The notes: generated by a model from the sequence alone, not told the origin. A stretch of DNA of 64,000 nucleotides from an uncultured Clostridia bacterium (GCA_944366945.1 CALVWJ010000002.1:43912-107911); one strand, 5' to 3'. Positions 44,299 to 64,000 are shown, counted from the stretch's first letter. A program made the numbers and translations.

Positions 44299-44332
44299 AA
44301 GGCTCCCATGAGTATACTCATGGGAGCCTTTT
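44299..44332 (-). terminator. hairpin downstream of the second SBP gene
   Basis: The stem is AAGGCTCCCATGAGTA/TACTCATGGGAGCCTT. The U-tract is modest. Confidence 0.55.
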
Positions 44333-44345
44333 AAACGTTTCTAGT

Positions 44346-46016: not shown

Positions 46017-46074
46017 TATGTGCCTCCATTTAGTATTATTCTCATGCCGACACCGGCCTAATGAGTCAATAAAA

Positions 46075-47055: not shown

Positions 47056-48023
47056 TACACTTCCTCCTCTGCAAAGTGGCATCTATAGGTATGTGTTGCG
47101 CTTAAAGCTCGAATTGCAGGATCTTGCTCATAGCAAATTTTTTTTGCCATTGGGCAACGGTTCGCAAACCGGCAACCAGGTTGGACTTCCATTAAACGCG
47201 GTACCGTTCCATCTATGGTCTGGAGGCGTCCTTCCTGCTTCGTGCCGCGCGGAAGCGCCTTCATCAATAAGCGTGTATATGGGTGCTTTGGAGCACGGAA
47301 AATCTCAAATACATCCCCCTGCTCAACCAGCTCGCCGGCATACATAATTGCAACGCGATCCGCAACCTCTGCAACCAAGCCGAAATTATGGGTAATCAGC
47401 ATGACCGCCGTTCCAAATTCCTTTTTGAGCTGGCTTATGATTTCAAGTATTTGCGCTTCGATCGTAACATCGAGCGCAGTGGTAGGTTCATCCGCAATCA
47501 ACAACGATGGGTTTCGGCTCAGCATCATGGCGATCATGACCCTTTGCCGCATACCGCCGCTCATCTCGTGTGGATAGGCCTGTACCCGTTTTTCTGCATC
47601 AGGCATTTTTACGTTCCTGTAGAGCTCGATCACCTTTTTCCAGCCTTCAAGTTTGCTGATTCCATCCAACCGTATCGCTTCATTAACCTGCGCGCCCGTA
47701 GTATAAACCGGGTTCAATGAATCCAGTGGGTTTTGAAAGATCATTCCAATATCATGACCACGAACCCCTGTGATCTGCTTGTTGGACAGCTCCATCAGAT
47801 TGGTGCCATTATACTTGATGCTCCCTAAAACAACTGCATTTTTATCCAGCAGGCGCATGATTGAATGCGCAACCGTGGATTTCCCGCAGCCGGATTCCCC
47901 TACCACTGCGAAGATTTCGCCGCGATTTACATGAAAGGAAACGTCCTTTACTGCGCTTAAGTATCCGCCGCGCACCTTATAGTTAATAGAAACATTTTCT
48001 AATCGAAGCAGTTCGTCATTCAT
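47055..48023 (-). CDS. oligopeptide ABC transporter ATP-binding protein (OppD type)
   Basis: It has GESGCGKST, MSGGMRQR and LIADEPTTALD. The ATG at 48021-48023 follows GAGGTG. Confidence 0.92.
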   Translation of the reverse strand: MNDELLRLENVSINYKVRGGYLSAVKDVSFHVNRGEIFAVVGESGCGKSTVAHSIMRLLDKNAVVLGSIKYNGTNLMELSNKQITGVRGHDIGMIFQNPLDSLNPVYTTGAQVNEAIRLDGISKLEGWKKVIELYRNVKMPDAEKRVQAYPHEMSGGMRQRVMIAMMLSRNPSLLIADEPTTALDVTIEAQILEIISQLKKEFGTAVMLITHNFGLVAEVADRVAIMYAGELVEQGDVFEIFRAPKHPYTRLLMKALPRGTKQEGRLQTIDGTVPRLMEVQPGCRFANRCPMAKKICYEQDPAIRALSATHTYRCHFAEEEV

Positions 48024-48036
48024 AAACAGCACCTCG

Positions 48037-48888
48037 TTAACCCTGCGATTTCATGCGGGGATCCAGCAGATCGCGTAACCCCTCACCGAGAATGGTAAAG
48101 CTCAAAACCGTGTAAACAAGCGCCAATCCTGGATAAATCGCAAGCCAGGGCGCCTTGGTGATATATTGGATGCCATCGGAAACCATTAACCCCCAGTCTG
48201 GCGAGGGCGGCTGCGAACCTACACCGAGAAACGAAAGCGTTGTCGTTGACATGATGGTGCTCGGAAGCGCCATGGATACCATAACGATCAGAGCTGGAAC
48301 AATATTGGGCAAGATGTAGCGGAACATTAATGAAAAGTCACTTTCTCCAAAGGCCACACCGGTTTCGATAAAAGCCATGTTTTTGAGTGACATTGTTTTT
48401 GCACGCACTGTTCTCGCCATTGACGCCCAGTTCACAAGCGCAATTGCAATGATGGCATTTGTTAAGTTTGTTCCGATCACCGTAACGACTGCAAGCGCCA
48501 TCACCATGCCGGGAACGCACCATGTTAGGTCTGCAAGGAACAGCATTGCTTTATCTACAACACCGCCAAAGTAACCGCAGAACAACCCTACAACTACGCC
48601 TAAGACCAATTGGATCGAGCCGCCGATAAGGGCAACTTTTAATGTGATGCGCGTTCCATATACAATGCGGCTGAAGAGATCTCTTCCCATTTCATCGGTT
48701 CCAAACAGGTGCTCCTTGCATGGTTCCGTTAATTTGGCCGCAGGATTCCCGGCGTCATATGCATAGGGTGCGATCTGGTCTGCAAACACCGCAAGAACCA
48801 GTATGCTGATGAACATGATCAATCCCAGCATAAAGTTGAAGTTTTTCAAGCTGCTGCGAAAAAATTCCTTGATAGGGCTTTCGTACAT
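48037..48888 (-). CDS. ABC transporter permease (OppC type)
   Basis: It is a multi-TM protein joined to the upstream permease by an ATGA overlap. Confidence 0.9.
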   Translation of the reverse strand: MYESPIKEFFRSSLKNFNFMLGLIMFISILVLAVFADQIAPYAYDAGNPAAKLTEPCKEHLFGTDEMGRDLFSRIVYGTRITLKVALIGGSIQLVLGVVVGLFCGYFGGVVDKAMLFLADLTWCVPGMVMALAVVTVIGTNLTNAIIAIALVNWASMARTVRAKTMSLKNMAFIETGVAFGESDFSLMFRYILPNIVPALIVMVSMALPSTIMSTTTLSFLGVGSQPPSPDWGLMVSDGIQYITKAPWLAIYPGLALVYTVLSFTILGEGLRDLLDPRMKSQG

Positions 48889-49826
48889 CACTTGTCACCT
48901 CCACCTATGGAAATCCTTATCCGAGGATCTAAGAGGCCGAGCATCAGATCAGCCAATATATTGCAAATTACCGTCATAATAGAAATTAAGAAAATCAAGC
49001 ATTGCACGACATTGAAATCCTGGTTGATAATAGAGGTTATCATTAACCCGCCCATTCCAGGGATTACAAATATTTTTTCAATGATAATATAGCCCGAAAT
49101 CAGCCAGGGCAGCGATTGAAACACCTGGACGCAGATGATAATTAAGGAATTGCGAAGCACATGTTTACAACGAACGGCATTTTCGCGAAGCCCTTTTGCA
49201 TACGCTGTAAGGATATATTTTTCGCGCAAAACATCCAGCGCCTCGCTTTTGGTTAAACGCATCGTTGTGGCCAGCCCGCTTAAAACGCCGGCTGTGATCG
49301 GAAGAACATAGTGTTTCCATGTGCTAAAGCCGCTCAATGGGAACCACTGCCGTTCAACTGCAAATGCAATCATCAACAAAACGGAAATCCAAAATGATGG
49401 AACAGATGTCATAATCATCGAGGTAATCATTGCCGCTCTATCAAAGATGGTATCCTTTTTATAGGCGCATAGCAGGCCCAATGGAACAGCTACCGCATAT
49501 TGAATCAACGCAGTAATTACCGTTAAACGCAAGCTTACGGGAATCCTTTCTTCTACCAGATCCCATACGGGAAGCCGGTATTTGAACGATATGCCAAAGT
49601 CCTGTTCAACCGTTACGCCATACAGCCAATCAGCATACTGTACTAAAAGCGGGCGATCCAACCCATATTCTTTTTCAATCTCTTCCAGCCGCTCCAAGCT
49701 TGCTCCCTCGCCCGCCATCAACGTGACGGGACTTCCGGGCATCATATAAAGCATGCTGAATACCAAAAACGACACGCAAATTACCAAAACAATACCGAGC
49801 AGCAATTTTTTGACTACATATTGCAA
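48888..49826 (-). CDS. ABC transporter permease (OppB type)
   Basis: The product starts (M)QYVVKKLLLGIVLVICVSFLVF. The apparent TTG start lies 6 nt after AAGGGGGG. Confidence 0.88.
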   Translation of the reverse strand: MQYVVKKLLLGIVLVICVSFLVFSMLYMMPGSPVTLMAGEGASLERLEEIEKEYGLDRPLLVQYADWLYGVTVEQDFGISFKYRLPVWDLVEERIPVSLRLTVITALIQYAVAVPLGLLCAYKKDTIFDRAAMITSMIMTSVPSFWISVLLMIAFAVERQWFPLSGFSTWKHYVLPITAGVLSGLATTMRLTKSEALDVLREKYILTAYAKGLRENAVRCKHVLRNSLIIICVQVFQSLPWLISGYIIIEKIFVIPGMGGLMITSIINQDFNVVQCLIFLISIMTVICNILADLMLGLLDPRIRISIGGGDK

Positions 49827-49891
49827 GGCTATCCCCCCTTATTTCTGAATTGCGATTGTAATGATCCTAATTCCACATATTTGTTCGAATG

Positions 49892-50809
49892 CTATTCAGC
49901 TATATAGGTTTCATAGATTTCTTTGGAAAGCTGTGCCAAGTAGTTATCGCCATACCGCCCACGATCGTTTGAATCATAATCTTCTTTGCTTGCAAGGTTC
50001 CCATTATAGAACATGCAAAGGATATAGTCTCCCGCCGGGCCTGCATAGACAATGCCAATATCTACGTTGAGTTTGTCGAGCGATCCCGTTTTATGCGCAA
50101 CTACAATGCCGGGCGGCAACAGATGTGGAATACGCGAGTTGGTTTGGCATTGCTTCATTATATTGAGCATGCCTTCGCTGGCTTCACGGTTAACCCATTT
50201 TCCGCGATACAATAGTTCCAACATTTTCATCGCCTCGCATGGAGCCGTTTGATCGTTTTCATCTGTAATGCACTGATACCATTTGCTGTTATGATAACTT
50301 GGAGCGCGCCCTCCATTGTCTTCCCAAAGCTGTTGGAAATTCCTTCCGTTCATGCCATAGTAAACATCAATAAGCTTATTGCAACCCCAATCGCATTTGG
50401 TTTGAGACAGCCCCAAATAATCTATTACGTTATGCTTGATGTTTTCTCTGCCAAGAAAATTAAAAAGGAAATCCGTTGCGGTATTATCGGATATGATCAT
50501 CATAAGGGTCGCATAGTCCTTCAGCGTTAGGTTTAGACCGGCATCCAGCTGTTCCAGCACACCGCTGCCAATAGATTTAACGGCATCCGTCAACGGATAG
50601 CGATCATTTAGGCTGCACTCACCCGCATATGCCTTGCGATACAGTTCAGCAAGAATATAGATTTTATATGCGCTCGCCGTTGGGAACGGCTCATCCGCAT
50701 GAGCCAGAACAGTAGTTCCGGTTTTAAGGTCTTTAAATGCAACACCAAGCGGCGCACTCGTTCCGTTTTGATATTGCTTCACGATTTGTTTGATTTGCTC
50801 AATACGCAT
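49892..50809 (-). CDS. class-A beta-lactamase-related serine hydrolase
   Basis: The SxxK (SAYK), SDN (ISDNTA) and KTG (HKTGS) motifs appear in the canonical order. No signal peptide is obvious. Confidence 0.8.
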   Translation of the reverse strand: MRIEQIKQIVKQYQNGTSAPLGVAFKDLKTGTTVLAHADEPFPTASAYKIYILAELYRKAYAGECSLNDRYPLTDAVKSIGSGVLEQLDAGLNLTLKDYATLMMIISDNTATDFLFNFLGRENIKHNVIDYLGLSQTKCDWGCNKLIDVYYGMNGRNFQQLWEDNGGRAPSYHNSKWYQCITDENDQTAPCEAMKMLELLYRGKWVNREASEGMLNIMKQCQTNSRIPHLLPPGIVVAHKTGSLDKLNVDIGIVYAGPAGDYILCMFYNGNLASKEDYDSNDRGRYGDNYLAQLSKEIYETYIAE

Positions 50810-51146
50810 AATTTCTCTTATTCCTTTCGCTAGAATCCTCTAATGTGCCACGAATTAAATATCTTAAAAATCAGGGATATCTCGTTTTTTCTTAAATATT
50901 AACCAACTTGAATCCTTTTTGTTTGCTTAAGTTTTTTTCAATTATATACTCTTTCAGCAGTTCCAATCAAGCAACACAGCATACGCGCTTCTAGTACTAA
51001 GGAATTTTGAGCTTTGTTATAATCCATCAGTAGTCTTACAGCAAGTTCCCAGCAAGGGCTGTAATAGCTGAAATTCTGCGCTGATTCATGCTGCGTTTCA
51101 CCATCTCAGCTTACTTTCTTTTCATTTTGTGCGTTTTACAGAGCGC

Positions 51147-51998
51147 TCATTTGAATTTGTATAGCGCTGCATCGTCTCCAAACGTACCAGCAAGCGCTGT
51201 TCCTGTCACAAATGCCAGATACGCTTCTTTATAATCTTTTCCGTGATAGCGAACCACCGTTTCTCCTAAGCGCTCTGCATTGGGAGCTGCCATTGCTTTC
51301 CAGGCCTGTGCTTCTGCGCTGTAACGCACATCAATCTCCACAGCTCCTTCCACGGTCATGGGTTGAATTTTTTCTGTTTCGATTTCTTCGAGCGCCCGCT
51401 TCACTTCCGCTCTGATCATGCGCGCTGTAACGTTGGGATGAATACAACTCGCAGCCCCATTGCTAATGCATTCTTTTACAGCGACAGTATGAATTCCAAG
51501 GATATTCTGTTTTGCATCGGCAGTCACTATGTCATCACCAGAAATAAACACCACAGGGGTACCATAATAGCCGATCATATGGCCAATCAGTTCGTATTCG
51601 GAAATAATCTTCCCATTTAGCTTCATTTCTACCATTGAGCCATACGCATAACTATGGCTAATCACACCTTTGGACCCTTTGCGCGCGTGGTAGCCAATCA
51701 GCAAAGCTGCATCGAACCTTTTTTGGGCCCCTTCCGCCATAGTATAAGGGCGGTCTGCGCCCGAACAGAGCACAATCCGTTCGTCCAAATCGGTAATACG
51801 CAAGTTGTCGCCATTGTTGTGCGCATCGTTCACAAATACTGCATCCGCTCCTGCATCAAACGCTCCAGCTGCTGCAGCATTAATATCACACGCCATCAGT
51901 TTTCGTGCATAATCATACTCAGAATTGCCAGGCATCACTTGAGCCAGCTTGTAAATCCCCGATATGCCTTCCGCATCCATTGAAATATAAACTTTCAT
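51147..51998 (-). CDS. M55-family D-aminopeptidase (B. subtilis DppA type)
   Basis: MKVYISMDAEGISGI is the characteristic N-terminus. The product is 283 aa. Confidence 0.85.
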   Translation of the reverse strand: MKVYISMDAEGISGIYKLAQVMPGNSEYDYARKLMACDINAAAAGAFDAGADAVFVNDAHNNGDNLRITDLDERIVLCSGADRPYTMAEGAQKRFDAALLIGYHARKGSKGVISHSYAYGSMVEMKLNGKIISEYELIGHMIGYYGTPVVFISGDDIVTADAKQNILGIHTVAVKECISNGAASCIHPNVTARMIRAEVKRALEEIETEKIQPMTVEGAVEIDVRYSAEAQAWKAMAAPNAERLGETVVRYHGKDYKEAYLAFVTGTALAGTFGDDAALYKFK

Positions 51999-52213
51999 TC
52001 ACTGTTGCTCCTGCTTTATTTCCCGTTTGCTTGTTTCCCACTTTACTTTTTTGTTTAGGTAGCATCGAATTGAAGAACGCATTTAACTATATTTATTATA
52101 TTAGCATTTCAGAATGCTTTGCAATTGCATTTTGTGTTTTTCTGTTGAAACGCAATTGCATTTTATCCATAGTTTGTTTATGATAAATAAAATATAAAAG
52201 ATCGGGAGAAGCC

Positions 52214-53086
52214 ATGAGTCTTAGTTTTTATCGACAGTTTTTATTTCAAAGCAAAGGCAGCTATCATATTTATATTGGTGAAGGGTATTCTGGTTCAGTC
52301 GCCCCACAGCAGCATGAGTTTTATCATTGCACTTATATCACGGAAGGCCAGATCTTGGAAAACCAATTTGGAAAAGAGTTCCTCCAAAGTGCTGGAGAAT
52401 GCTTCTTTACACCAGCCGGCACAAATCACAGCTTGTATATCTTTGAAAACACGAAATACTTTTGTCTTTCTTTTTCGAAAAGTATCGCCGATATCCTATT
52501 TTCTTACTTTCAAAACTTGCGTCGGGATTTTTCCAATCTGCCGCCGATCATTAAATTGACAGAAAACATGCAGAATCGCTTATGCCTTTGCCTTCGTTGC
52601 CTGCTTGATGAACAAGAGTATGCCAGTGCTTCTGCATTCGGAACCGGGCAATTTCTTACCATTTCAGCTCTTATTATTATCCTCCGTGATTCTTACAGTG
52701 CGTGCTTTCCACCCATTCCTTTCCCAACCAATACGAAAGAAAACTATGCTGCCCAAATTCAGCGTTGCCTTCAACATATTGACACGAATTTTGACCATCC
52801 ATTAACTGTAGATGAGCTTGTTCAAATCAGCATGCTTTCAAAGAGTACCTTTTACAAGGCTTTTGAACAATATACTGGAATGTCAGCGAAGCAATATCTG
52901 GCAGAAACACGCATAAAACAGGCAATACAGCTTATGCGTATTAGCCACATCCCATTGAATGAAATTGCACGGCGTGTTGGATATGATGATTTTTCCACAT
53001 TTTATCGCAATTTCATCAGAATTAAAGGTGTCTCACCCGCGCAATACCGCAATGACTTCGTGCTGCCGGCATTGCAGCAGGAATGA
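52214..53086 (+). CDS. AraC-family transcriptional regulator
   Basis: A cupin-like N-terminal half is followed by a C-terminal double HTH (LSKSTFYKAFEQYTGMSAKQYL...IARRVGYDDFSTFYRNF). It is divergent from the peptidase/transporter operon. Confidence 0.9.
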   Translation: MSLSFYRQFLFQSKGSYHIYIGEGYSGSVAPQQHEFYHCTYITEGQILENQFGKEFLQSAGECFFTPAGTNHSLYIFENTKYFCLSFSKSIADILFSYFQNLRRDFSNLPPIIKLTENMQNRLCLCLRCLLDEQEYASASAFGTGQFLTISALIIILRDSYSACFPPIPFPTNTKENYAAQIQRCLQHIDTNFDHPLTVDELVQISMLSKSTFYKAFEQYTGMSAKQYLAETRIKQAIQLMRISHIPLNEIARRVGYDDFSTFYRNFIRIKGVSPAQYRNDFVLPALQQE

Positions 53087-53303
53087 TGTGCCCAACTCTA
53101 AATAGCGAACTTTTCAACCTGCATACAAGCAACCAATACGGCGTTGGGAACTACATTGTTATAGGTGGTGGTAATTGCTCAGTTCCAAAAGAGCTTGCTA
53201 ACTTCTCTGTAGCTTCAAAAGCTACATGTAAATAAGTTGTACTGCTTACAGCATATACAGCAAGGTGGCGCGTTGCTTGCTTTTTGTTTATATACAGACC
53301 AGC

Positions 53304-53845
53304 TCAATGCAATGCATAATTAATCCGCACCATATGCACATGGTCTTCCCAACGTCCGTTAATTTTAAGGTAATGCTTTGAAAGCCCTTCGTTTACAAAG
53401 TGGTTCTTTGCAAGCACCCTTAGGGATGCCGCATTTCTTGGCATCACATTGCCTTCGATGCGATGGAGCCCCAGCGTGTCGAAGGCATATTGTACCACCA
53501 TCTCCACCGCCATGGTCATATAGCCGCGGTTAATATAGGCTGCATCCAGCTTGTACCCCATAAAAGCGGAACAAAACGCTCCCCAAATCACATTGTTAAG
53601 CCCAATCATGCCTATGATTTTTCCCGATTCCCCAGCCGGCCTTATATAAAAGCGAAACGCTGTTTTTTCCCGCCAGGCGCTCACTTCCTTTTCCAAGATT
53701 TCCCTTTGATATGCTGCAGAAAAAATGCCTCGCTGCGTGCAGGTTCAAATGCTTCTAAAAACTCTCTGTTGCGCCGATAATACTCGGCCAGCTGCTCCGC
53801 AAGCGATGCATCCGCTGGAATAAGCTCAATGTATTCGTTTTGCAT
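53304..53845 (-). pseudogene. GNAT (RimJ/RimL-like) N-acetyltransferase interrupted by a frameshift in a T6 run
   Basis: Track ORFs 53681..53908 and 53304..53696 are two halves of one GNAT. The frames switch at GCATTTTTTCTGCAG (A-run 53720-53725 on plus). One extra T would give ...SEAFFSAAYQREILEKEVSAW... Confidence 0.75.
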
Positions 53846-53911
53846 GCTTTCTTTCCTTTCTAAAATCCAGCTTGCGCCAGTTCGCGTCCAAGCCGATGGC
53901 AATCGCATCCA

Positions 53912-54580
53912 CTATTTCCGAAATACGTGCACATCTCCAAGCAACTCGATTGTTCCATGATCGATTAGGATCGCGCCGGCGTTGTATGCGGTAGCATATA
54001 CGGTTTTTCCTCGTTCCGCAAGCACGCGCTCAATGGATGCGTTCTACTCTTCCGTGCCTTCATAATGAACCTCCAGATAAAAGCCGTGCAGATACGGGAT
54101 CCCTTTTTGATAGGTAAACCGGGGATAATCCGTATCGGGGGAAAGATGGTATTCTGCAAGCTGAACAAGCGCTCCTGCGCTATAGCCCATAGCGATCCCA
54201 TCATGCGCCAGCAAAACATCCTAAAGCTCCAGCGCATGGATCCGCTCCATCATCCGGTCTGGCAAGCCGCCGAGAAAGTAAACGATGTCCGCCATCTCCA
54301 CTGTCCGTGCTGCGGTTTCTTTGGTGTCCTTAAACCAATTTAGAAACGAAATGTTTTCTTCCTGTATGCCATAGGAGAGCAATCCGCCAGCGATGCTTCC
54401 ATAGTATTTCCCATTTTCTTTGCTGTAGAGCGCATCCCAATCCTCAAGATTCCGAACGCGGTTTTCCTTAAAGGAAAGCGCAACAACGGCAACCCGGGAA
54501 TTGGGCTTAATATACTTTTTAAGCGATCCATAAAGCCACCGCGCATCAATTTGTGTATTCTCAAGTAGTATGTTTATCAC
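53912..54580 (-). pseudogene. peptidase S51 (dipeptidase E-like) gene with two in-frame TAG codons
   Basis: One frame reads ...DIVYFLGGLPDRMMERIHALEL*DVLLAHDGIAMGYSAGALV...HYEGTEE*NASIERVL...VFRK*. The nucleophile motif GYSAGA is present. The in-frame TAGs lie at 54221-54223 and 54044-54046. A GTG start forms a GTGA overlap with the upstream gene. Confidence 0.7.
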
Positions 54581-55524
54581 TTTTGCACATCCTCCCAAAA
54601 ATCAAGCTGCGCTGCCTTAAGCGACACTGCATTCCGCCTGGAAACGCGATCCTCTGGTCCAGGCACGCTGCAAAGCAAAGCGGCTTTCGGATCATACGCG
54701 CTGCATTGGCGTTCCACGCGTGTTCCATTCAAGTTGGCATAACAATAAACACAACCATTCTTGCAGGTGTTATATGCGCCGATGTCTATGCTTTCCAGGC
54801 ACCCGCACGCAGCACGTTGATTTTTATCTTTTGCAGCGTTAAGCGTGCATTGCCCGATCCGTTCCAAGCGGCGTTTTTCGATGCACTGCGCCCGCGCGAT
54901 CCCAAAACGCGTTAGGTCGATCTCTTCTGCGCATACATCCAGAGCAATCGACCGCGCGCAGGCGATCTCGCTGAAGCAACCCATCAGCTCTTCTATCTGC
55001 GAATCATTCGGCGGGGCGATACCATATGGCGCAATGCTGCGCTGGATTTTCCTATACAAATCGATAAAGCTCACCGTACAGTTTTCCGTGTAACCCGAAA
55101 GCTGATCGCAAAGCCTTAGGAAACATGCTACATGACGCTGCACCGTATACGTTGAATTGATAAAGATGGGGTCATAGCGCCAAACAACCCGCTCTTTTCC
55201 AATCGCCGCAGACAGCTTTCGAAAGGTGGCAACAATTTCGTTCTTGGGCGGGAGCCTTTTTTCTATGTCCGCCCCGTATGGCGTTAAAGTAAACTGAAAG
55301 TAATAAGCATAGTCCTGCAGAGCATCCAGCCTCTTCAGCATAGGCGCCGGGTTCTTCGTCCAGAACACGATCCCGTCTACAACCTGCGGCGACAACGGCA
55401 CCCGGCTGACCGCATGTGGATGCATGGGGTTACGAACATCAACATACCCCGCTTGAAGGCGATTGCAAAACCATTCGGAATAGAAGCAAGGAATATCCGT
55501 TCTCCGACTTGCGCTTAGGATCAT
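54577..55524 (-). CDS. DUF1848-family protein
   Basis: MILSASRRTDIPCFYSEWFCNRLQAGYV...IVFWTKNP...YYFQFTLTPYG is the typical DUF1848 N-terminal pattern. An ATGA overlap links it to the upstream gene. Confidence 0.75.
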   Translation of the reverse strand: MILSASRRTDIPCFYSEWFCNRLQAGYVDVRNPMHPHAVSRVPLSPQVVDGIVFWTKNPAPMLKRLDALQDYAYYFQFTLTPYGADIEKRLPPKNEIVATFRKLSAAIGKERVVWRYDPIFINSTYTVQRHVACFLRLCDQLSGYTENCTVSFIDLYRKIQRSIAPYGIAPPNDSQIEELMGCFSEIACARSIALDVCAEEIDLTRFGIARAQCIEKRRLERIGQCTLNAAKDKNQRAACGCLESIDIGAYNTCKNGCVYCYANLNGTRVERQCSAYDPKAALLCSVPGPEDRVSRRNAVSLKAAQLDFWEDVQK

Positions 55525-56332
55525 GGCATCAATCTCCCGCCCATTTGCGCCATAAATCCATTTTTGCACACCCAGCGTTGGGACTGTTTGAGCCCCTCGG
55601 CCGTTTTTGTTTCCAAAACCACCCGGCATCCCGTTGCTTCCGCCAACGCTAAATATGCGTTTAGCTCCAACGCGCCGGAACCGAGCGCTAAATGGTCTTT
55701 CCCATCCTGTGCATCATGCACATGCATATGGCGCAGTTTACCTTTGTTTTGCATGATGAATGGTTCATCAAGGCCGCCGCAACTATGGTTGTGGCCAATA
55801 TCATAGGTTAGCCAAAAACAGGAGATTCCAGCAGCAGGCAGATCGCTTCTTTTTGAAAAGGAAGGAATCCATTGCTGTTTTCGATGCAGATCATGATACC
55901 AGAGTCGCCGATTGCCTCTTCGCACATCACCCGAAAGTCCAAAATGCTTTCCAAGTAACGATGGCGATAAGCGGAAAAGAGATACGTTTTCCCTTCTGGA
56001 AGCGTAAAATAGACGCCGCGCGGAAAATGCATTGTAAGAATGGGGATTTCGAGCGTTTTGCAGATTCCGATGGTCTCCCGCACAGTGCGCCGGTATCCTT
56101 CCGCGATGTACGGGTTAAAATCGCTTACGTTGAGGTTTTCATCAAGGTGAATCGTATAGCCGATTCCATATTGCGCAGCAATTCTTTTAAAATACGAAAC
56201 ATCAATTGCGTCCAATTGGTACTGAGGCAGGTTCATATTGAGCTCTACAAAACCCAGGCCAAGTTCCCTGCAAAGCGCTGCGCACGCCTCAAGCGTATTG
56301 GTTTCCAACAAAGTGGGCATTCCGAACTGCAT
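55521..56332 (-). pseudogene. sugar-phosphate isomerase/epimerase (xylose-isomerase-like TIM barrel) interrupted by a frameshift in a T5 run
   Basis: Track ORFs 55808..56332 and 55521..55925 are two halves. The switch occurs at CCTGTTTTTGGCTAACC (A-run 55814-55818 on plus). One extra T would give ...ESPVFWLTYDIGHNH... Confidence 0.7.
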
Positions 56333-57419
56333 TTATATCCCTCTCCAATTTCCGTTGGATGCGGCATTGCCGCAGCTTTTCCAAGGATTCTTTCATTTTT
56401 GAAAGCATCTAAACTATTCCTAATTTGCACCCAAGCATATAAGCACATTCTATCAGATCGCCCCTTTTCCTACAAGGTAGCTTAGTCCTTGTTGGTGCTT
56501 GCAATAGATGTTTGGCAGAAAACGCGCGCATTTGGCGGCCAAACTTGGCTCTCCTTATCCGTTTGGTCGTAAGTTGAACATAAACCATTGTCTGGAAGAT
56601 ACAGGTATCAAAAGAATATAGTTTCGTGATGCATCTATAGAATGATAGAATGAATTAGGGCGTTGGCGTTGCAATTAACAGCCAAATGCTCTGCCATCCA
56701 TGTGGAATCATTTGGGATACGATCAATGAAATGCCATACTATGATCTCTACAATTCCAGTTTACCGTGCTGCAAGTTCATTTTCCCTATTCCTTCGACGT
56801 GCTCAATACGCTTCTGCATCTTTAGCGTTTTAAAGCACTTTACGATGCAGCCTTTTCTTCGCCTCTGGAGCATCGCCGCATCTGCTTTTCCCATGCGATA
56901 AAACATGGGATATATCCTCCATCCGTCCCAAGGCATGAATGAAATTTCAGAAAACATATCATCCATAAATGCAAAATCAAAGCTGTTTCACCCATATTTC
57001 GCTATATTGATGAATCTTCTGACGTTTGCCACACTTTTCTCTTTTAGCGTCCCATTGTCCCCCTATGGTACCCCATATAATGTCGCAAAACATCCCCATG
57101 GTTGCTGCATTTAAAAAACATATCGCAAGCATCATTCCAGTCTTGTTTGAGGTATGTATGGCTTGATATCCCTAAACGAATTTCAGCCTTAGGAAACTTT
57201 TTAAAACTATATTGTTGTTTCTGTCCCTTTGTGGCACAAGATATGCGAATTAATAATTAACTGGATCAATGAAAGTCATGATTGCCACGCATTAAATTGC
57301 AGCATTCATGTAATGCTCTATTGTATATGGAGCATTACATTGGGGGCTTGATGAATGTGCTGTTTAAGCTTGCGGCATGGTTGATCTCAAAATGATGGAT
57401 TGGGTAGGGGGATATTATT

Positions 57420-57830
57420 ATGCAGCATACTATTTTAACAATCGTTGAAAATTTATGCGAATATCGTCAAGTGTGCGCAAAAGCCGCAATCATTGGAAAT
57501 ATGTTGCAAATGCAAAATGATTTTCCCTGCGGGCAGTACAATTACACAGCATTGAAGCAGCAGCACACTCAATTGCTTCACAAAAAAAGCATAATTGATT
57601 GTTGGTTGCAGTTGTTACCGGACGACGAGCGATTCGTGATACAGACTCACATGATCCAAGGGCTCGACTGGGCCAAAACACAAACTGAATACGATAAAGT
57701 TTGGGGGATTATGAATGGGCGCTCCGAGCGAACGCTCAAACGGATGCAGGCTAAGGCCATTCGGCGCATCGCAGCATGTATGAACCAAATCGAAGCGCTG
57801 GCTTGCTCTACGGACGTGGAGGTTAAATAG
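57420..57830 (+). CDS. sigma-70 region-4-like / ArpU-RinA-type putative transcriptional regulator
   Basis: The C-terminal half, LPDDERFVIQTHMIQGLDWAKTQTEY...SERTLKRMQAKAIRRIA, resembles region-4 HTH/phage late-regulator families. The assignment is tentative. Confidence 0.6.
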   Translation: MQHTILTIVENLCEYRQVCAKAAIIGNMLQMQNDFPCGQYNYTALKQQHTQLLHKKSIIDCWLQLLPDDERFVIQTHMIQGLDWAKTQTEYDKVWGIMNGRSERTLKRMQAKAIRRIAACMNQIEALACSTDVEVK

Positions 57831-57845
57831 GCAGCATTCCGTGCT

Positions 57846-57926
57846 CGTTAAGGTACTGGTGGTAGAGATCAACTTGCCCCATGCATCGTATGTATATTTT
57901 ACCACCTTCGCGCCGCTGCCGTCCAT
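57846..57926 (-). repeat. truncated copy of the RHS core-end repeat (remnant cassette)
   Basis: It encodes [29 protein letters not shown] and then loses homology. The rest of track ORF 57615..57926 is antisense to the regulator gene. Confidence 0.8.
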
Positions 57927-57988
57927 TAGCCCTCTATATGTGTTAAATAGCCGGCAGCCAGTTATCTGGCTGCCGGCCCTGGTGCATG

Positions 57989-58408
57989 TTATTTCTCTGC
58001 CATCTCCATACCATCGTCAGATTTGAGTAGAAGTGCAATGTCCACCGCAATTAACGCAGCAATCACGCCCACTAAGATATAAACAACGATGTCATAAACG
58101 ATTGAATCACTTCCAAATAATCGGATGCTGTTAATAATCACAGTTAACAGCAATAATGCTAAACTCCCCCAACAGTAAGTCTTATAGCAGATAGCCCAGC
58201 GCGTTGCGCATTCCTTGCCTCCCTGGAACAGCAAACGGTATAGTCGCAGCCATTCGCCAAATGAAATTACTGCAAAAAGGCTAAATTGAAGTCGTTCCAC
58301 AATTAAAGGCGGAAATAATAGCAAAGCTGTAAACAAAACATCGGCTACAATTCCTATTGAATTCCTACACGATCGAATCTCTGCTTTTAGCCGCTCGATT
58401 ACGGTCAT
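57989..58408 (-). CDS. 4-TM membrane protein, unknown function (immunity-like)
   Basis: The product is 139 aa. GGAGGAG precedes the ATG. It lies within the RHS cassette array. Confidence 0.65.
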   Translation of the reverse strand: MTVIERLKAEIRSCRNSIGIVADVLFTALLLFPPLIVERLQFSLFAVISFGEWLRLYRLLFQGGKECATRWAICYKTYCWGSLALLLLTVIINSIRLFGSDSIVYDIVVYILVGVIAALIAVDIALLLKSDDGMEMAEK

Positions 58409-58580
58409 GTTAATCTATCTCCTCCTTCCCCAATGCTGACCTTGACGCTACTTCCAACATTTTTGAGGCTATAGAGTTACAGCAACAACCGAAAGGGATT
58501 GTTTGCGCCCCATATGTTTGACACGATGCCTGCTGGAACATTGGAAACACTCCAGACGTAAAACCGAATGCGGTATGCCT

Positions 58581-59768
58581 TTAGAACCGCTCATTCCAGC
58601 TTGGGCAAAGATACTGTTTATCAATATAAGGCGCGCTTTCCAGATTGTATTTGAGCACAACCGATCCGTTCTTCATAATATGGAATTCCCCCTTTTGAAT
58701 GGGGCGCATCTCCCATCTTTGTCGGAAATCCCACCCGTTATGCACAAACCCGACTCCGGGGCGCAGCATGGGCGCCAGAACATTTCGAATCGCATACATA
58801 TCCTGCAGGTTCATCTCCATCAGCCCTTTGGTAAACCGCACAATCGTATTTCCATTTGCAAGGCGCGTTACTTGAAAGCGCCGATCATCCTTTATGGTTT
58901 CCAGCCGGGGTTCCAGTGCCGCATAAAAACGCTGCGGCAAGATGTTGAACCATTCTGCTCCCAGCAAATAATGGCTGTTATACCAATTATAAGGATTCCT
59001 TTCCTTTCCATCCAGCCAGAACGGTTTATAGGAGGGGAGGCTCGAGAACATGGATGCATGGGCAAAGAGATATTGCCCATCATTAGAGTCCAGCATTACA
59101 GCGCCTTTACAGGTGTCATTGATCGATGCCAGCTCCGTTGCAAGTTCCGCAAAAAACGCAATCAACTCCTGCTGCTCGAACGCTGAAACTGCTGTTTCCA
59201 ATTTGAGGGTTATCGAATAGCGGCCTGCCGTAAAGCTGGAAAGATCGCTTGATAAAATCATTCCGGCTTCGGACCAATTCGGCGTAGCGAGAAATTGGGT
59301 TTTTTCAATTGAAACAAGCTGCATGAAGGAATCTGCATCACACGGGCCATTTAATTTTTCTCCAAACATCTCAGCAAGCGTTCGCCTATAATCAGCCGAT
59401 ACATCGGAATATGGATTAGGCCGGCTTCCATGCTGTGGATAGTAAAACTCCCGTAAATCTCCCTTCTTTTTTATCGGGCCGTCCTTGAAAAATATATCCG
59501 CCGTAGCTGATGGATATCTATTCTTTTCCAGGTGCATCATGAATGTTGCCTGTAATTTCTCCGCCTTGAGCCTCCGATCTTCACATTCTAGATCGCAAAC
59601 GCATTTAGACGAAAGCGGTATAAGAAACCGTTCCAATATAATACTAAGTACATCTTCAACTTGATCCATTCCCATATCCGAAAAAGAGAGATCCAACACA
59701 AGATTTCTTCCATCTATTGGTTCAGAACGTATAAGAATACTTTGTTTCATGATATCGGTGATATCCAC
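58581..59768 (-). CDS. 395-aa cytoplasmic protein, no recognisable domain (possible immunity protein)
   Basis: The GTG start lies 7 nt after GAAGGAGGAAG. The long ORF is clean, and it sits immediately downstream of the nuclease cassette. Confidence 0.7.
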   Translation of the reverse strand: MDITDIMKQSILIRSEPIDGRNLVLDLSFSDMGMDQVEDVLSIILERFLIPLSSKCVCDLECEDRRLKAEKLQATFMMHLEKNRYPSATADIFFKDGPIKKKGDLREFYYPQHGSRPNPYSDVSADYRRTLAEMFGEKLNGPCDADSFMQLVSIEKTQFLATPNWSEAGMILSSDLSSFTAGRYSITLKLETAVSAFEQQELIAFFAELATELASINDTCKGAVMLDSNDGQYLFAHASMFSSLPSYKPFWLDGKERNPYNWYNSHYLLGAEWFNILPQRFYAALEPRLETIKDDRRFQVTRLANGNTIVRFTKGLMEMNLQDMYAIRNVLAPMLRPGVGFVHNGWDFRQRWEMRPIQKGEFHIMKNGSVVLKYNLESAPYIDKQYLCPSWNERF

Positions 59769-59804
59769 GCTGCTTCCTCCTTCAATTCGTTTTGCTTCAT
59801 GCCG

Positions 59805-60631
59805 CTATGCAGTGTATGATATCGGTGGCATAAGGCTTCCGGGCGATGTAGAGAAGCCCTTATACTCAATCAGCCCGCCAGTGTAATACACGATTAATGC
59901 TGCACCTACTGCTACCGCAATACCACTACCCACGGATGCGGCCTTTTTCCAATTATAGGTTGGAGTGTATACAACCAAGCCATTCTTTTTACTGCTACTG
60001 CTATATTCTACATCCCATAGCCCATATGAAAAGCTCCCAGAAAGCTTTGCTTGTCCTGGTTTAGGTCTTTTCCCTGTAGATACAACTTTTGAGCTCTCAT
60101 AACGAGCCATCTATCTTTCCGTAGTAGCTCTTTGGGATGCGCCCTTGCTTTTGACTTCATAATACGAATTGTTGCTCAAATCATAGACATCCAAAAACCC
60201 GATTCGCCCATTGTCCGCTTTTACATAGATCGCATCTTTACTGTACTTCCTAATTGTTCTTTTACAATACTGATCTGTACCATCTTATGAATTGCGCTGA
60301 AATCTATTAAGTTTAAAATAGGCGTAATTGGGTTGGTTCCATCGCTGTCATAAAACAGTATCGGATCGTTATTGCAATAAGCAAAACGGTTATTCCCCAG
60401 CACACCCTGCCCAGTGGAAAGATATACATCCGCCGAAAGGAACCGCCCCACCTCCGGATCGTAATACCGCGTCATAAGGTAATACAGCCCGGTTTCTGCG
60501 TCGTAATAGTAGCCCCTGTAGCGGAATGGATTATCTGCTCCCAACGTGCTTGCCAGGGTGCCGCTGGTTGAGATCAACTTGCCCCATGCATCGTATGTAT
60601 ATTTTACCACCTTCGTGCCGCTTCCGTCCAT
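59805..60631 (-). pseudogene. orphan RHS C-terminal cassette encoding a RecB-like PD-(D/E)xK nuclease toxin, disrupted
   Basis: The core-end repeat ends ...[16 protein letters not shown]. After a frame switch at the A3 run (60237-60239) the reading is [52 protein letters not shown]... This gives the D, ExK and (Q)xxxY motifs. The TAG at 60111-60113 is in frame with track ORF 59805..60110. Confidence 0.7.
60396..60631 (-). repeat. RHS core-end repeat, copy B (236 bp)
   Basis: It is near-identical, with only a few mismatches, to 61995-62230. It encodes [21 protein letters not shown]...[24 protein letters not shown]. Confidence 0.9.
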
Positions 60632-60685
60632 TATGGTATTTCAGTTGTTATAGAGGTATGCCCAAAGTAATTCATAAGTGTCCGT

Positions 60686-60716
60686 AAAGGCAGGGGGCCA
60701 AAATCCCCCTGCCTTT
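60686..60716. terminator. GC-rich hairpin separating cassette modules
   Basis: The stem is AAAGGCAGGGGG/CCCCCTGCCTTT, followed by GTTTGA on the plus strand. Confidence 0.5.
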
Positions 60717-60725
60717 GTTTGATCC

Positions 60726-61388
60726 TTAGTTGAGGCACAACTCCCAACCATTTTCATTCAGCTTATATGTAGCAGCAATTTCGCCATCAATGCCAAGCTC
60801 TACTCTAGTTGTATTTGCCGGTAAAACATAAACGCGATCATAATCGGTTTTTCCGTCTAAATTTTCTGCCTCCATTATAACTTTAGGCAGCTCGGCATTT
60901 AAGGTTACAATGCTTTCTCCCACGCTTCCATCCATGCCAAATAGAAACCAATAAGTTTCATCTAGTTGCGGATAGGCAAGACAGGCAGCACATAAAGCTG
61001 TTTTATATTCAAATGCATTTTTAAATGAAAATGAAAACGGTGGAGTGATATACCATTTTCCTTTCTTCTTTAGCAAGATGCTGGGGAAAACATTGTTTGT
61101 TCCTTTACGCGTTATAAGCAACGTTGATGTTTCACAATCAATCATCTGTTCATAGTCTGCTTCTCCAGGGCTTTTTACATATGCATATGCAGCCAAAGGT
61201 GAATCAAAGCCTATTAAGGTGGCTTCCGGAACGATGAAGTTGCACAAAAATATTAGCAATACATATCCTGCTACAAGAATCAACCACGGAGTTTTTCTTT
61301 TACGTAGCCACTTCTGGAACGGCTTACAAGCGAACCATAATCCTGCTATCACAGCAAGCACAGCTATGTTGCGAACAATGCCAAACAT
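60726..61388 (-). CDS. membrane-anchored protein (2 N-terminal TM), putative immunity protein for cassette C
   Basis: The product is 220 aa. The ATG follows GTGGGGGGT and lies 17 nt after the toxin stop. Confidence 0.7.
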   Translation of the reverse strand: MFGIVRNIAVLAVIAGLWFACKPFQKWLRKRKTPWLILVAGYVLLIFLCNFIVPEATLIGFDSPLAAYAYVKSPGEADYEQMIDCETSTLLITRKGTNNVFPSILLKKKGKWYITPPFSFSFKNAFEYKTALCAACLAYPQLDETYWFLFGMDGSVGESIVTLNAELPKVIMEAENLDGKTDYDRVYVLPANTTRVELGIDGEIAATYKLNENGWELCLN

Positions 61389-61405
61389 CAGTACCCCCCA
61401 CTCGT

Positions 61406-62230
61406 TTATTTGATTATAATCCTAGAACCGATTGCTGGTGCGGGGCGTCCAATACCACTCGTGCCATAAACTGTTCCTATGATCACTGCAACAGGAATTA
61501 AGTTAACTCTTACAGAAGCACTCTTGGTATGGCGCTTTTTCTTTTCAGCTTCATGACTTCTTGAACCCGTCAATCCAACAGATAGATTTTTAAGTGAAAC
61601 ATCCAATTCAGCGCTATAGCTTTTTGAGCCAACCCCAACCGAAATGCCACTGCCAACAGACAGACTGTCCGCAGAACTAAATACATAGACGGAAGCTGAT
61701 GTTTCAAATGCGTTAACACTAACACCAAAATCAGAACGCTTTCCATTTGTATTGTTTGAAAAAAGTACAATTTGTGCATCTGTTTTGCCAAAAGGCTCGC
61801 TATGGCTGACCGAATCGCTTACTTCAAAAGAAACAAAAATATAATTATATTCTTTCGTTATCGATTTTTCGACAACAGTTTCACCGCCAACACCGAACAG
61901 ACTGCCAAATAGTTCCCATATGTCTTCCCATGATTGCCCCAATATCTCCACTCTGCGCACTGGATTATTTCCACAATACGCCCACATATTTCCGCCCAGC
62001 ACACCCTGCCCAGTGGAAAGATATACATCCGCCGAAAGGAACCGCCCCACCTCCGGATCGTAATACCGCGTCATAAGGTAATACAGCCCGGTTTCTGCGT
62101 CGTAATAGTAGCCCCTGTAGCGGAAGGGATTGTCTGCTCCCAACGTGCTTGCCAGGCTTCCGCTGGTTGAGATCAACTTGCCCCATGCATCGTATGTATA
62201 TTCTACCACGCGCGTGCCGCTTCCGTCCAT
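61406..62230 (-). CDS. orphan RHS C-terminal cassette with an uncharacterised ~170-aa toxin-like domain
   Basis: It has the core-end repeat, then WAYCGNNPVRRV, then a unique Ser/Gly/Val-rich C-terminus ending in a hydrophobic segment. There is no RBS before its ATG, and a stop lies 4 codons upstream. Confidence 0.7.
   Translation of the reverse strand: MDGSGTRVVEYTYDAWGKLISTSGSLASTLGADNPFRYRGYYYDAETGLYYLMTRYYDPEVGRFLSADVYLSTGQGVLGGNMWAYCGNNPVRRVEILGQSWEDIWELFGSLFGVGGETVVEKSITKEYNYIFVSFEVSDSVSHSEPFGKTDAQIVLFSNNTNGKRSDFGVSVNAFETSASVYVFSSADSLSVGSGISVGVGSKSYSAELDVSLKNLSVGLTGSRSHEAEKKKRHTKSASVRVNLIPVAVIIGTVYGTSGIGRPAPAIGSRIIIK
61995..62230 (-). repeat. RHS core-end repeat, copy C (236 bp)
   Basis: See copy B. 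Its left end additionally matches copy D (CAATACGCCCACATATT). Confidence 0.9.
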
Positions 62231-62277
62231 TGTTGACTGTTAAGGAGAATTCAGAAGTATCTGAAATGTCTAACAAC

Positions 62278-62309
62278 AAAGGCCGGGGAAAAATTCTTCC
62301 CCGGCCTTT
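62278..62309. terminator. GC-rich hairpin separating cassette modules
   Basis: The stem is AAAGGCCGGGG/CCCCGGCCTTT, with T-rich flanks on both strands. Confidence 0.6.
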
Positions 62310-62635
62310 GTTTGAATTGTTAATTTCCTGCCATCTCTCCAGCAATTTAATAGATGTATGCATCCAAATGTGAACGACAATACGCTAAAAATATTTCTTG
62401 AACAGGGCACTACATTAAACGAAACATTATCAGACGCATATCTTAATTCTCAGCGCAATTTTTCTTTATATATAGTCGCCTCCAAAACGTTTTATAAGCA
62501 AGCCACATGCTATTGACAATGTTTCTTCAATGTAAGCAACCAAAGCGTTGCTTGTTTATATTAACTTCCACTGAGTTACAACTCCATTTGCACTGTAATA
62601 CGTAGGTCGCTCTGCTTTATGCGCATAATCATACT

Positions 62636-63439
62636 TTAATCTTCAATATAAAGTTTATTATATAGCATTTTTTGTAGAGTCATATTCTTAGCAATATCTT
62701 TTGGGGTTATACCTCCGCTATCTGGTATGGATGGGTCAGCTCCTTTCGAAGCTAAATACTGTATTTGATTTTGCGCACAACATACACTGGCATAAAACAA
62801 GGCTGTACGCCCCTCCGAATCACACGCGTCAATATCCGCGCCGCAACTCAAAAGAAGATCGCATATAGAAAAATGCTCATATTTGCATGCAATCATAAAG
62901 GGTGTTGTGCCATCAAATATACCACACAAATCAACAACCGCATTTGCTTGAAGCAGCTTTTCTGCGATTATGTGACTGTTCTCCGCCGCGGCAATATAAA
63001 GCGGTGTTTGCCCAGACGATTCCATTTGATTTACACAGCATTTATTCTTTAGCAGCAGAGAACATACGTCACGGTAGTCTTCTTGCGCCGCCCAGTGCAA
63101 ACCATTCCTTCCAGTCTCATCCACACCACTGGGATCTGCTCCCGAAGACAGTAAATAGCATAAGACATCTACTCTGTTTTTGGCGGCAGCGTAGCTTAAC
63201 TCATAACGTTCTTTCTTGAATTTGATTTCATTCTCATACAACCATTTGACCATACTCAAGTCTCCACAAGTACAGGCTTGTTCTAATAACGTATAGTCTG
63301 ACTCTTTTTCTATTGCAAGAAGATCACATCCACTTTTTAATAAATCTTCCATTGCAGAGACCGCCCCCGCAGAAATTATATCCCAAATTTTTTCAATCAA
63401 ACTATTATTTTGTGCGCACACGGATTCCACTACCTCCAT
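62636..63439 (-). CDS. ankyrin-repeat protein, putative immunity protein for the terminal RHS toxin
   Basis: It has repeated ~33-aa units (G.TPL..A...G....V..LL..GAD). Its 5' end overlaps the toxin 3' end. Possible starts are ATG 63439, GTG 63430 and GTG 63421. Confidence 0.8.
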   Translation of the reverse strand: MEVVESVCAQNNSLIEKIWDIISAGAVSAMEDLLKSGCDLLAIEKESDYTLLEQACTCGDLSMVKWLYENEIKFKKERYELSYAAAKNRVDVLCYLLSSGADPSGVDETGRNGLHWAAQEDYRDVCSLLLKNKCCVNQMESSGQTPLYIAAAENSHIIAEKLLQANAVVDLCGIFDGTTPFMIACKYEHFSICDLLLSCGADIDACDSEGRTALFYASVCCAQNQIQYLASKGADPSIPDSGGITPKDIAKNMTLQKMLYNKLYIED

Positions 63440-64000
63440 AGTAATAATGATCATAGGGCCTCGGCATTTTAGGTGTTAATTTGGACGGAAGCTTTATGTT
63501 AGGATGATAATGGGGGCCATGGCTTCCGTTAGGATGATGTATGGGCTCATTGCCCTTTCCAGCTTTCTTAGCTGCTTCTTTAGCCTCTTTTTTTGTTTTA
63601 TACTTTTTTCTCCTACCAATAGGCTTATCGGATCTTTGATTAATATCCGTGTCTTTTGATGCGACCGTAATTCCACTTCCCCTGGATACAACGCCAGTAT
63701 GGGTTGGCATAGGTATTACGGTTGAAATGCTTTCGGCCACAATGGCAGCACCATCTGTAACGGCTGAGACTACAACTGCTGGAAGAGACTCAGTTCCATT
63801 GATCAAGACATCCACCAAGGCAACCACGAGCAGTGTACCCACTAAAATTTCGGCTACTGTAAAAGTTATACCTAAAACACAAACCGTTACACTAGTTCCA
63901 CTGGTATCCGCAAAAATAATGGGATTATTAAGGCAATACGCCCACATATTGCCGCCCAGCACACCCTGCCCAGTGGAAAGATATACATCCGCTGAAAGGA
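63405..64000 (-). CDS. RHS/YD-repeat family toxin, C-terminal end (5' part beyond the window)
   Basis: The frame is open to the window edge. It reads ...[34 protein letters not shown], then a hydrophobic stretch, a Lys-rich linker, and the His-rich tail HHPNGSHGPHYHPN...YDHYYY. Confidence 0.85.
   Translation of the reverse strand, partial: LSADVYLSTGQGVLGGNMWAYCLNNPIIFADTSGTSVTVCVLGITFTVAEILVGTLLVVALVDVLINGTESLPAVVVSAVTDGAAIVAESISTVIPMPTHTGVVSRGSGITVASKDTDINQRSDKPIGRRKKYKTKKEAKEAAKKAGKGNEPIHHPNGSHGPHYHPNIKLPSKLTPKMPRPYDHYYYGGSGIRVRTK
63934..64000 (-). repeat. RHS core-end repeat, copy D (within the parent gene; truncated by the window)
   Basis: It matches 61974-62040 with 2 mismatches by eye. 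Confidence 0.85.

Follow-up and report, generated by a model that had tools for sequence, protein, structure and literature searches.

Orphan toxin-tip and immunity cassettes in the distal part of a probable RHS polymorphic-toxin locus of an uncultured gut Clostridia bacterium

The window analyzed here is a stretch of 64,000 nucleotides from an uncultured Clostridia bacterium (GCA_944366945.1, CALVWJ010000002.1:43912-107911), and positions 57,840 to 64,000 carry an array of cassettes related to the 3′ ends of RHS (YD-repeat) polymorphic-toxin genes. Each array unit comprises a 237-nt copy of the RHS core 3′ end (the handle), a distinct toxin tip (CT), a putative immunity gene led by a Shine–Dalgarno sequence (SD), and a terminator-like hairpin. 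The features of the array and its distal border are listed below in the order in which the minus strand is read (TM, transmembrane; ORF, open reading frame; pN/pS, ratio of nonsynonymous to synonymous polymorphism).

63922–64000, minus strand: handle end piece (last 79 nt) preceding cassette A and truncated where the window stops; 74 nt align to the core end in blastn at 97% (E 1e-26).
63405–63921, minus strand: toxin tip CT-A, intact; a ~95-aa hydrophobic two-helix module, then a ~75-aa His-rich basic domain; stop TAA 63407–63405.
62636–63454, minus strand: ankyrin-repeat protein, putative CT-A immunity; Pfam Ank_2 E 3.4e-34, Ank E 9e-33; GGAGG at 63436–63432.
62281–62306, minus strand: GC-rich hairpin, then TTTGTTGTT, likely terminator closing cassette A; −26.8 kcal/mol, z −3.8.
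61995–62231, minus strand: full 237-nt handle copy at the head of orphan cassette B; without an SD and with TAA four codons upstream; TIGR03696 75.3 bits.
61406–62230, minus strand: orphan toxin B ORF, 274 aa (handle and intact CT-B); CT-B is beta-rich with a hydrophobic C-terminus.
60726–61388, minus strand: 220-aa putative CT-B immunity protein with two N-terminal TM helices; GGGGGG 5 nt before the ATG; pN/pS 0.14–0.28.
60686–60716, minus strand: hairpin closing cassette B; −27.1 kcal/mol, z −4.5.
60396–60632, minus strand: full handle copy (237 nt) heading orphan cassette C; TGA four codons upstream; TIGR03696 80.0 bits.
59805–60395, minus strand: CT-C toxin tip, pseudogene; a 1-nt deletion between 60234 and 60233 leads to a stop at 60223–60221; TAG for CAG at 60113–60111.
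58581–59768, minus strand: 395-aa soluble protein, putative CT-C immunity; AGGAGG before GTG 59768, alternative ATG 59750; pN/pS 0.36–0.55.
58490–58530, minus strand: possible degenerate handle relic (fifth copy) upstream of the 139-aa gene; 41 nt, handle positions 71–111, 73% identity, in register; blastn E 0.017.
57989–58408, minus strand: 139-aa protein with ~four TM helices; GAAGGAGGAG upstream (SD); pN/pS 0.10–0.21.
57949–57978, minus strand: 13-bp hairpin closing the last cassette; −29.1 kcal/mol, z −6.8.
57840–57928, minus strand: terminal handle stump, 89 nt at 82–89%; the strong part is the first 68 nt.
57420–57830, plus strand: conserved 136-aa ORF, convergent with the array, distal border; 97–100% identical beside the stump in every locus reaching the array end.

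A repeat search of the window gave 97% identity between the two full handle copies. Both matched the core end of a related full-length gene with blastn E values of 1e-114 and 1e-97, whereas chance matches across the 64 kb reached 1.3 at best. In both window orphans, the handle-encoded protein, which starts with MDGSGT(R/K)VV(E/K), is the Rhs-associated core domain (TIGR03696, cut-off 32.5 bits) situated directly before the variable tip. After each handle, ~25–60 nt still encode (G/N)N..AYC.N(N/D)P....D..G, diverged at the DNA level, and the demarcation motif reads NNPIIFADTSG in A, NNPVRRVEILG in B, and [11 protein letters not shown] in C. The GC content of the cassettes is 0.41–0.44, compared with 0.522 in positions 1–44 kb of the window, 0.49 in the RHS core, and 0.55 in the handle; this contrast with the genome (0.52) and the handle points to a foreign origin of the cassettes. 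The original prediction, made from the sequence alone, had described near-identical handle copies on the minus strand, an AT-richer region, and orphan ATGs that lack an SD and have stops shortly upstream, and on these points it agrees with our analysis. It had also let every copy begin at the same point, MDGSG. By direct reading, B and C do share their start at ATGGACGG, but the homology of the stump extends ~12 nt further upstream, and in the full-length protein the Met of MDGSG lies inside the core (..DIVGLMDGSG..) and is not a start codon. All handle copies contain an extended −10-like sequence, TGgTA(G/A)AAT, accompanied by a weak −35 (62229–62200, 60630–60601, and 57925–57896, minus strand); it could drive transcription of the orphan immunity genes, or it may reflect the coding sequence VVE/KYTYD. 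No plasmid match was found, and phage records resemble the handle at only 68–72%, in unannotated fecal contigs.

The exact ankyrin protein is encoded on contigs from many metagenome samples, and these contigs, with look-ups of the B toxin and the 136-aa ORF, yielded 20 informative loci. The stretches between handles were typed by blastn into six cassette types, A–F, with C′ denoting a C variant with a different 3′ part. The arrays are given below (FL:, fused to the full-length gene; ?, upstream context not seen).

Window, L087, and L088: ?A-B-C-stump
L180: ?A-F-B-C′
L181: FL:A-F..
L003 and L004: FL:A-C′-stump
L001: FL:F-D-A-C′-stump
L182: ..D-A-C′
L002 and L179: FL:E-A-D-C-stump
L005: ?A-D-stump
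L006: ?A-C-E-B-D-stump
L169: FL:C-stump

A full-length RHS gene stands at the array head in all seven contigs that reach that far (L001–L004, L169, L179, and L181), and every array reaching the distal end terminates in the stump beside the same 136-aa ORF. The full-length protein of ~2150 aa begins with MKKTVKSIISIMLAVACLFGFALWDTVYALS, which by visual inspection is a Sec-type signal peptide, and carries a DNRLRE domain (526–684), RHS_repeat (E 5e-43) and YD_repeat_2x (E 9e-31) matches, and the core domain (TIGR03696, 1904–1989). No wall-binding domain was identified in this protein, and no genes of the type VI (T6SS) or type VII (T7SS) secretion systems were present in the array flanks of the related contigs. 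L169 is 98% identical to the window over 53299–60633. Look-ups of the B toxin and the B immunity protein gave only short contigs beginning inside the handle, so they provided no linkage of cassette A to a full-length gene. A B-specific 35-mer in the Joint Genome Institute (JGI) metagenomes led to no contig beyond one already among the loci, and the ankyrin protein and a 23-nt handle word were absent from the GTDB representative genomes. In C′ (L003 10577–11212; L001 13312–13899), a homologue of the F-cassette immunity gene, with up to 98% DNA identity, replaces the 139-aa gene; it is an immunity gene that lacks its toxin. The 3′ end of cassette D retains ~100 nt derived from RHS core sequence lying further upstream, at 79–80% identity (L001 9143–9246, L002 12976–13079, L005 3512–3615, and L006 9476–9579), suggesting that the orphans once held longer core fragments that have since eroded.

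Four cassette types occur in both the fused and the orphan position. Cassette A is fused in L003, L004, and L181 and orphan in L001, L002, L179, and L182; C is fused and intact in L169 and orphan elsewhere; E is fused in L002 and L179 and orphan in L006; and F is fused in L001 and orphan in L180 and L181. The handles themselves were compared at 71 informative sites across the core end and handle, using the divergent handle type of the E cassette, which shares only 86% identity with the standard one. In L002 and L179, the handle of orphan A has E-type sequence up to position 75 and standard sequence from 136 onward; that of orphan E in L006 shows the opposite order, with the standard type up to 75 and the E-type from 136. 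These are reciprocal-type chimeras with the same 60-nt switch interval, in which both types are identical. In the orphan-B handle of L006, the type switches exactly at the handle start. A 5′ block of single-nucleotide polymorphisms (SNPs; AAGGTGGTAAAA versus CGCGTGGTAGAA) is independent of the cassette type, and the stump-type TAA variant is present in two L006 handles. The orphan handles are 97–99% identical to the full-length genes over 237 nt, and other orphans retain 20–149 nt more core than those of the window. The full-length gene of L002 matches that of L003 at 99–100% for ~5.1 kb and then drops to 73–86% over the last ~800 nt, indicating an imported 3′ end. On this population evidence of four cassettes in both positions and chimeric handles, the view that the shared repeat is the recombination substrate holds, and the common 5′ edge of the orphans would reflect descent from one truncated copy via unequal crossover. 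The alignment of repeat copies suggested in the original prediction thus places crossovers within the repeat at informative SNPs, and the variants in which B or C is fused to the parent gene, for which a population search had been proposed, exist in the case of C (L169).

The orphan toxins have had different fates. CT-A is intact in 13 of 13 copies, CT-B in four of five, with CT-E and CT-F likewise intact. Of the 10 orphan copies of CT-C, nine are broken, and the lesions are of at least four kinds (a 1-nt deletion, a TAG, a 13-nt deletion, and a TGA); the single fused copy of CT-C is intact, and so is the 395-aa neighbor in all 12 full copies. The protein database also holds frameshifted copies of CT-A and CT-B (P0004 and P0019). 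The lesions of CT-C in the window were identified by alignment with six other copies, and its frame ends at 60221 after 136 aa. The two orphan cassettes had been placed at 62230–61406 and 60631–59805; B is indeed one intact ORF, but C stops early, with a deletion and a TAG. Likewise, the idea of spare modules swapped by homologous recombination stands for A, C, E, and F, which are found in both states with chimeric handles, but the C toxin is dead in the window.

Taking these results together, the region is very probably the distal portion of a polymorphic-toxin locus of the RHS (YD-repeat) type, in which recombination between handles shuffles tip/immunity cassettes and the orphans are undeployed. 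Here, we propose a mechanism based on the strain comparison. An RHS protein of ~2150 aa, known from the related contigs and similar in design to Bacillus WapA, would head the locus. As the comparison shows, RecA-type homologous recombination between handles has moved cassettes between the expressed and orphan positions; the events may have included handle-to-handle deletion, unequal crossover of sister chromosomes, and recombination with imported DNA. Export and delivery would be restricted to the tip that is fused to the full-length gene; the orphan tips, with neither a start signal nor the shell, would be undeployed. The orphan immunity genes may be retained because neighboring strains still deploy the matching toxins. 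In the window, A is intact and may be either the expressed tip or an orphan, because the window ends 79 nt into its handle. A SNP 4 nt past the handle groups the window A with the orphan copies (“C”) and not the fused ones (“A”), which is a weak hint from ~2 versus 2 independent lineages once shared ancestry is allowed for. Cassette B, with its putative immunity gene, is the only intact spare in the window. In cassette C, the toxin has decayed beside a putative immunity gene that is intact; a probable immunity-only remnant and the stump follow.

Several points weigh against this reading. The core sequence inside the window amounts to only 79 nt, and no full-length RHS gene lies in it, so the RHS gene that the original prediction had entering from the right edge is presumptive. 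The toxin and immunity roles are putative, assigned from gene order, SD sites, and conservation, and no match was found for any toxin tip in Pfam, NCBIfam, or PDB. The original prediction had anticipated mostly unassignable toxin and immunity domains and had proposed hidden Markov model searches, which recognized the handle as TIGR03696 and the YD repeats in the related full-length genes but gave no family for any C-terminus. Silence of the orphans is plausible, as deduced indirectly from the missing SD, the upstream stops, and the hairpins; the hairpins of B and C have no clean T-run, and a consensus terminator scan flagged none of the three. A consensus promoter scan gave 19 matches versus 16 expected by chance. 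Finally, the strain comparisons reveal past recombination but neither its rate nor its direction, and they do not separate sequential displacement from deletion-activation.

The most serious alternative, to which we assign somewhat less than an even chance, is that the array is mainly a fossil record and immunity archive, in which imports displaced older tips downstream, the displaced toxins decay, selection acts only on the immunity genes, and re-use of orphans is rare or irrelevant. This explanation overlaps the shuffling model and differs from it in emphasis. The decay of orphan CT-C by independent lesions beside a consistently intact immunity candidate argues for it; by our own calculation, the probability that four random lesions would all fall in the toxin (~560 nt) and not in the immunity gene (~1170 nt) is about 0.01. 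It also accommodates the nonsense codon inside the handle of orphans B and D in L006, the frameshifted CT-A and CT-B copies, and the presence of immunity genes without toxins (the 139-aa gene and, in C′, the F-immunity-like gene), and in most arrays the most decayed cassette is nearest the stump, with near-invariant A nearest the head. However, orphan A is intact in all four copies with known context, orphans E and F are intact, B is mostly so, and even orphan C is intact in L006. Moreover, FL:A-C′ (L003 and L004) equals FL:F-D-A-C′ (L001) minus a between-handle segment, as deletion-activation predicts. The population pattern points to a role of immunity retention at least equal to that of toxin storage, and such retention appears to be a major reason for the persistence of the orphans.

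It is improbable that the orphan tips are expressed intracellularly from a handle promoter in a toxin–antitoxin-like manner, as reported for Salmonella rhs (PMC7043789). Every copy does carry the extended −10-like TGgTAGAAT or TGgTAAAAT with a weak −35, but such matches occur at chance level, the motif is fixed by the coding sequence, no in-frame orphan ATG is preceded by an SD, and the first ATG past the putative start site opens a 5-codon out-of-frame ORF. The frequent toxin pseudogenes beside intact neighbors also speak against addiction. It is very improbable that an integron-like, site-specific recombinase captured the cassettes at the sharp edge marked by ATGGACGG, although B, C, and many orphans in other strains start there at the same nucleotide. 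The flanks hold a 136-aa ORF, a 52-aa ORF, an AP-endonuclease-2-like gene, and a DUF1848 gene, but no integrase or recombinase; the junction points vary, with more core held in other orphans, and the crossovers map within the repeat and not at its edge. Descent from the stump via unequal crossover would explain the shared edge, and stump-type SNPs, including the TAA, are seen in the L006 handles. More improbable still is an assembly artifact from a collapsed or mis-joined repeat. Short-read assemblies do often break at the handle, and L005, L006, L087, L088, and L180 start inside it; however, independent assemblies of two other samples (L087 and L088) gave A, B, and C in the same order, and five other orders were assembled through several handles each with consistent flanks. 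We therefore rejected both integron-like capture and assembly artifact.

The ankyrin gene overlaps the stop of toxin A, as had been predicted, by 17–50 nt depending on the choice of start codon. Cassette A (window 62280–63921) varies at 11 of 1745 nt among 13 copies drawn from different samples, and the ankyrin gene has 0–1 differences in 800 nt across 13 copies. This near-invariance, in comparison with the synonymous divergence of up to 8% (pS 0.08) in cassette C, suggests that cassette A spread recently. Only 18 homologues of CT-A were found among 5.8e9 proteins. Its His-rich basic domain reads ..EPIHHPNGSHGPHYHPN..HDHYYY, and alignments show that the last ~75 residues are conserved (SKKxAKEAAKKAGxGKEPIHHPxGxHGPHYHPNV..TPK.P.PHDHYYY) with 18 invariant positions. 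The AlphaFold2 (AF2) model reached a predicted local distance difference test score (pLDDT) of 85–95 only for residues 100–160 (~60 residues). CT-A had no PDB match by sequence or profile, Foldseek gave none with an E value below 2, and a Pfam search at E values up to 1 gave nothing except a sub-threshold DUF5633 match. An assignment as an HNH/EndoVII-fold toxin found no support: no HNH-type model matched, the modeled helix precedes the His-bearing strands, and no beta-beta-alpha-metal fold was found.

CT-A, CT-D, and CT-E share the ~95-aa hydrophobic two-helix module (..SVTVCxLGxTF..DVLING..THP..GSGI..) and end in differing, short, very basic tails of 55–75 aa; their neighbors are soluble repeat-protein or other proteins. 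We propose that this module serves in delivery. It is possible, though doubtful, that it is a reusable membrane-entry device carrying small cytoplasm-acting toxins across the membrane of Gram-positive targets and that the CT-A tail (IHHP..GPHYHP..HDHYYY) represents a new metal-dependent toxin family neutralized by the ankyrin protein. To our knowledge, the cell entry route of WapA-type toxins is not known.

The relatives of CT-B in an exhaustive phmmer search of 1.84e9 representatives were only one frameshifted copy and one RHS fragment of 40% identity. The 220-aa neighbor had no family match in Pfam or NCBIfam; its two TM helices and the positively charged loop between them suggest that the target of CT-B may lie at the cell envelope. 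The intact CT-C allele carries a D..EVK motif (GFLDIYD..YYEVKSKG) of the kind sought for PD-(D/E)xK (restriction-endonuclease-fold) toxins, which makes CT-C a candidate nuclease; its AF2 model is of no use, with a mean pLDDT of 28.8, and no Pfam or NCBIfam match was found. What had been described as a different small gene after C is actually the 395-aa gene, which had no family match in Pfam or NCBIfam, followed by the gene for the 139-aa membrane protein. Because a possible handle relic precedes it, the latter is probably an immunity-only remnant of an older cassette. The 136-aa ORF at the distal border overlaps the read-through frame of the stump and has a weak sigma-70 region-4-like match (E 0.0019), which is below the cut-off.

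Beyond this border, the AP_endonuc_2 (xylose-isomerase-like) gene (55521–56332, minus strand) is broken up in the window, as in L169, into two ORFs that overlap (174 and 134 aa). It is one gene of 262–301 aa in most related strains, and the split copy is probably a frameshifted pseudogene. The DUF1848 gene (54577–55629, minus strand) encodes 350 aa in the window and L169 and 315 aa in most related strains. A ~9.3-kb segment (window 43960–53298) is absent from the sister contig L169, which matches at 98–99% on both sides. It encodes an Opp-like ABC transporter, a beta-lactamase-2-family protein, a peptidase M55, and an AraC regulator and forms a strain-variable island beside the toxin locus. 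The aspartyl-tRNA synthetase of the window is 94–95% identical to those of uncultured Clostridiales metagenome-assembled genomes (UMGS922 and SUG591), 92% to that of “Christensenella sp. UBA1685,” and 62–63% to those of cultured Christensenella, and the best identity of the DUF1848 neighbor is only 58%. Judged from its sequence, the host is an uncultured Christensenellales-like gut Clostridia.

Rhs C-terminal displacement with orphan rhs-CT/rhsI modules has been described in Enterobacteria (Jackson 2009, cited in PMC3150448), Salmonella LT2 (PMC3967940), and the bee-gut bacterium S. alvi (PMC5727410). In those proteobacterial loci, as in the arrays compared here, truncated core-end fragments, each with a distinct tip and an immunity gene of its own, lie behind a full-length rhs gene; the orphans are devoid of a start signal and an export part, some are pseudogenized, and some immunity genes are toxinless. 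The array therefore belongs to a kind already known, here in a Gram-positive gut commensal. The handle is shorter here (237–262 nt at 97–99%) than the core recombination homology of Salmonella (522 bp at 95%), and the demarcation motif is NNPxxxxD(T/S)xG instead of the PxxxxDPxGL of Enterobacteriaceae. The full-length protein has a Sec signal peptide in place of the T6SS/VgrG/PAAR association, and the tips are without a family match, unlike the proteobacterial comparators. Bacillus subtilis WapA/WapI (PMC4436062) is likewise a Gram-positive RHS-repeat system: its protein exceeds 2000 aa, carries a signal peptide and a polymorphic C-terminal toxin, and is followed by an immunity gene. In a limited look at the literature, we did not find orphan arrays described behind wapA. 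The present protein differs from WapA in its DNRLRE domain and in the lack of an identified wall-binding domain, and the described WapA toxins are tRNases (PMC4436062), whereas the tips here match no family. The ankyrin protein after CT-A and a HEAT protein after CT-E resemble the Imm-ank and Imm-HEAT immunity proteins (Zhang et al. 2012, PMC3482391). The same study links Imm-ank to HNH/EndoVII-fold toxins such as Tox-AHH, but CT-A matches no Tox-AHH-type model, and this link is a lead only. As in the T6SS immunity-gene arrays of Vibrio cholerae (PMC5361080), older immunity genes are retained downstream after loss or replacement of the toxin; here, however, most toxin tips are still present, and the repeat allows re-use.

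The design itself is textbook, and known biology is extended, not changed; the value of the locus lies in its host group, the clean recombination evidence, and the family-less toxin tips. Hardly any work has addressed contact-dependent toxin systems in the abundant, uncultured gut Clostridia, in comparison with Proteobacteria and Bacteroidales. Across many human-gut-type metagenomes, the loci provide a natural series of array states that reveals handle-mediated shuffling in a Sec-dependent Gram-positive RHS system, and the series also documents the decay of displaced toxins with the persistence of immunity genes. At least six toxin/immunity pairs without a recognizable family are candidates for new toxic activities and may serve as markers of strain-level competition in the gut.

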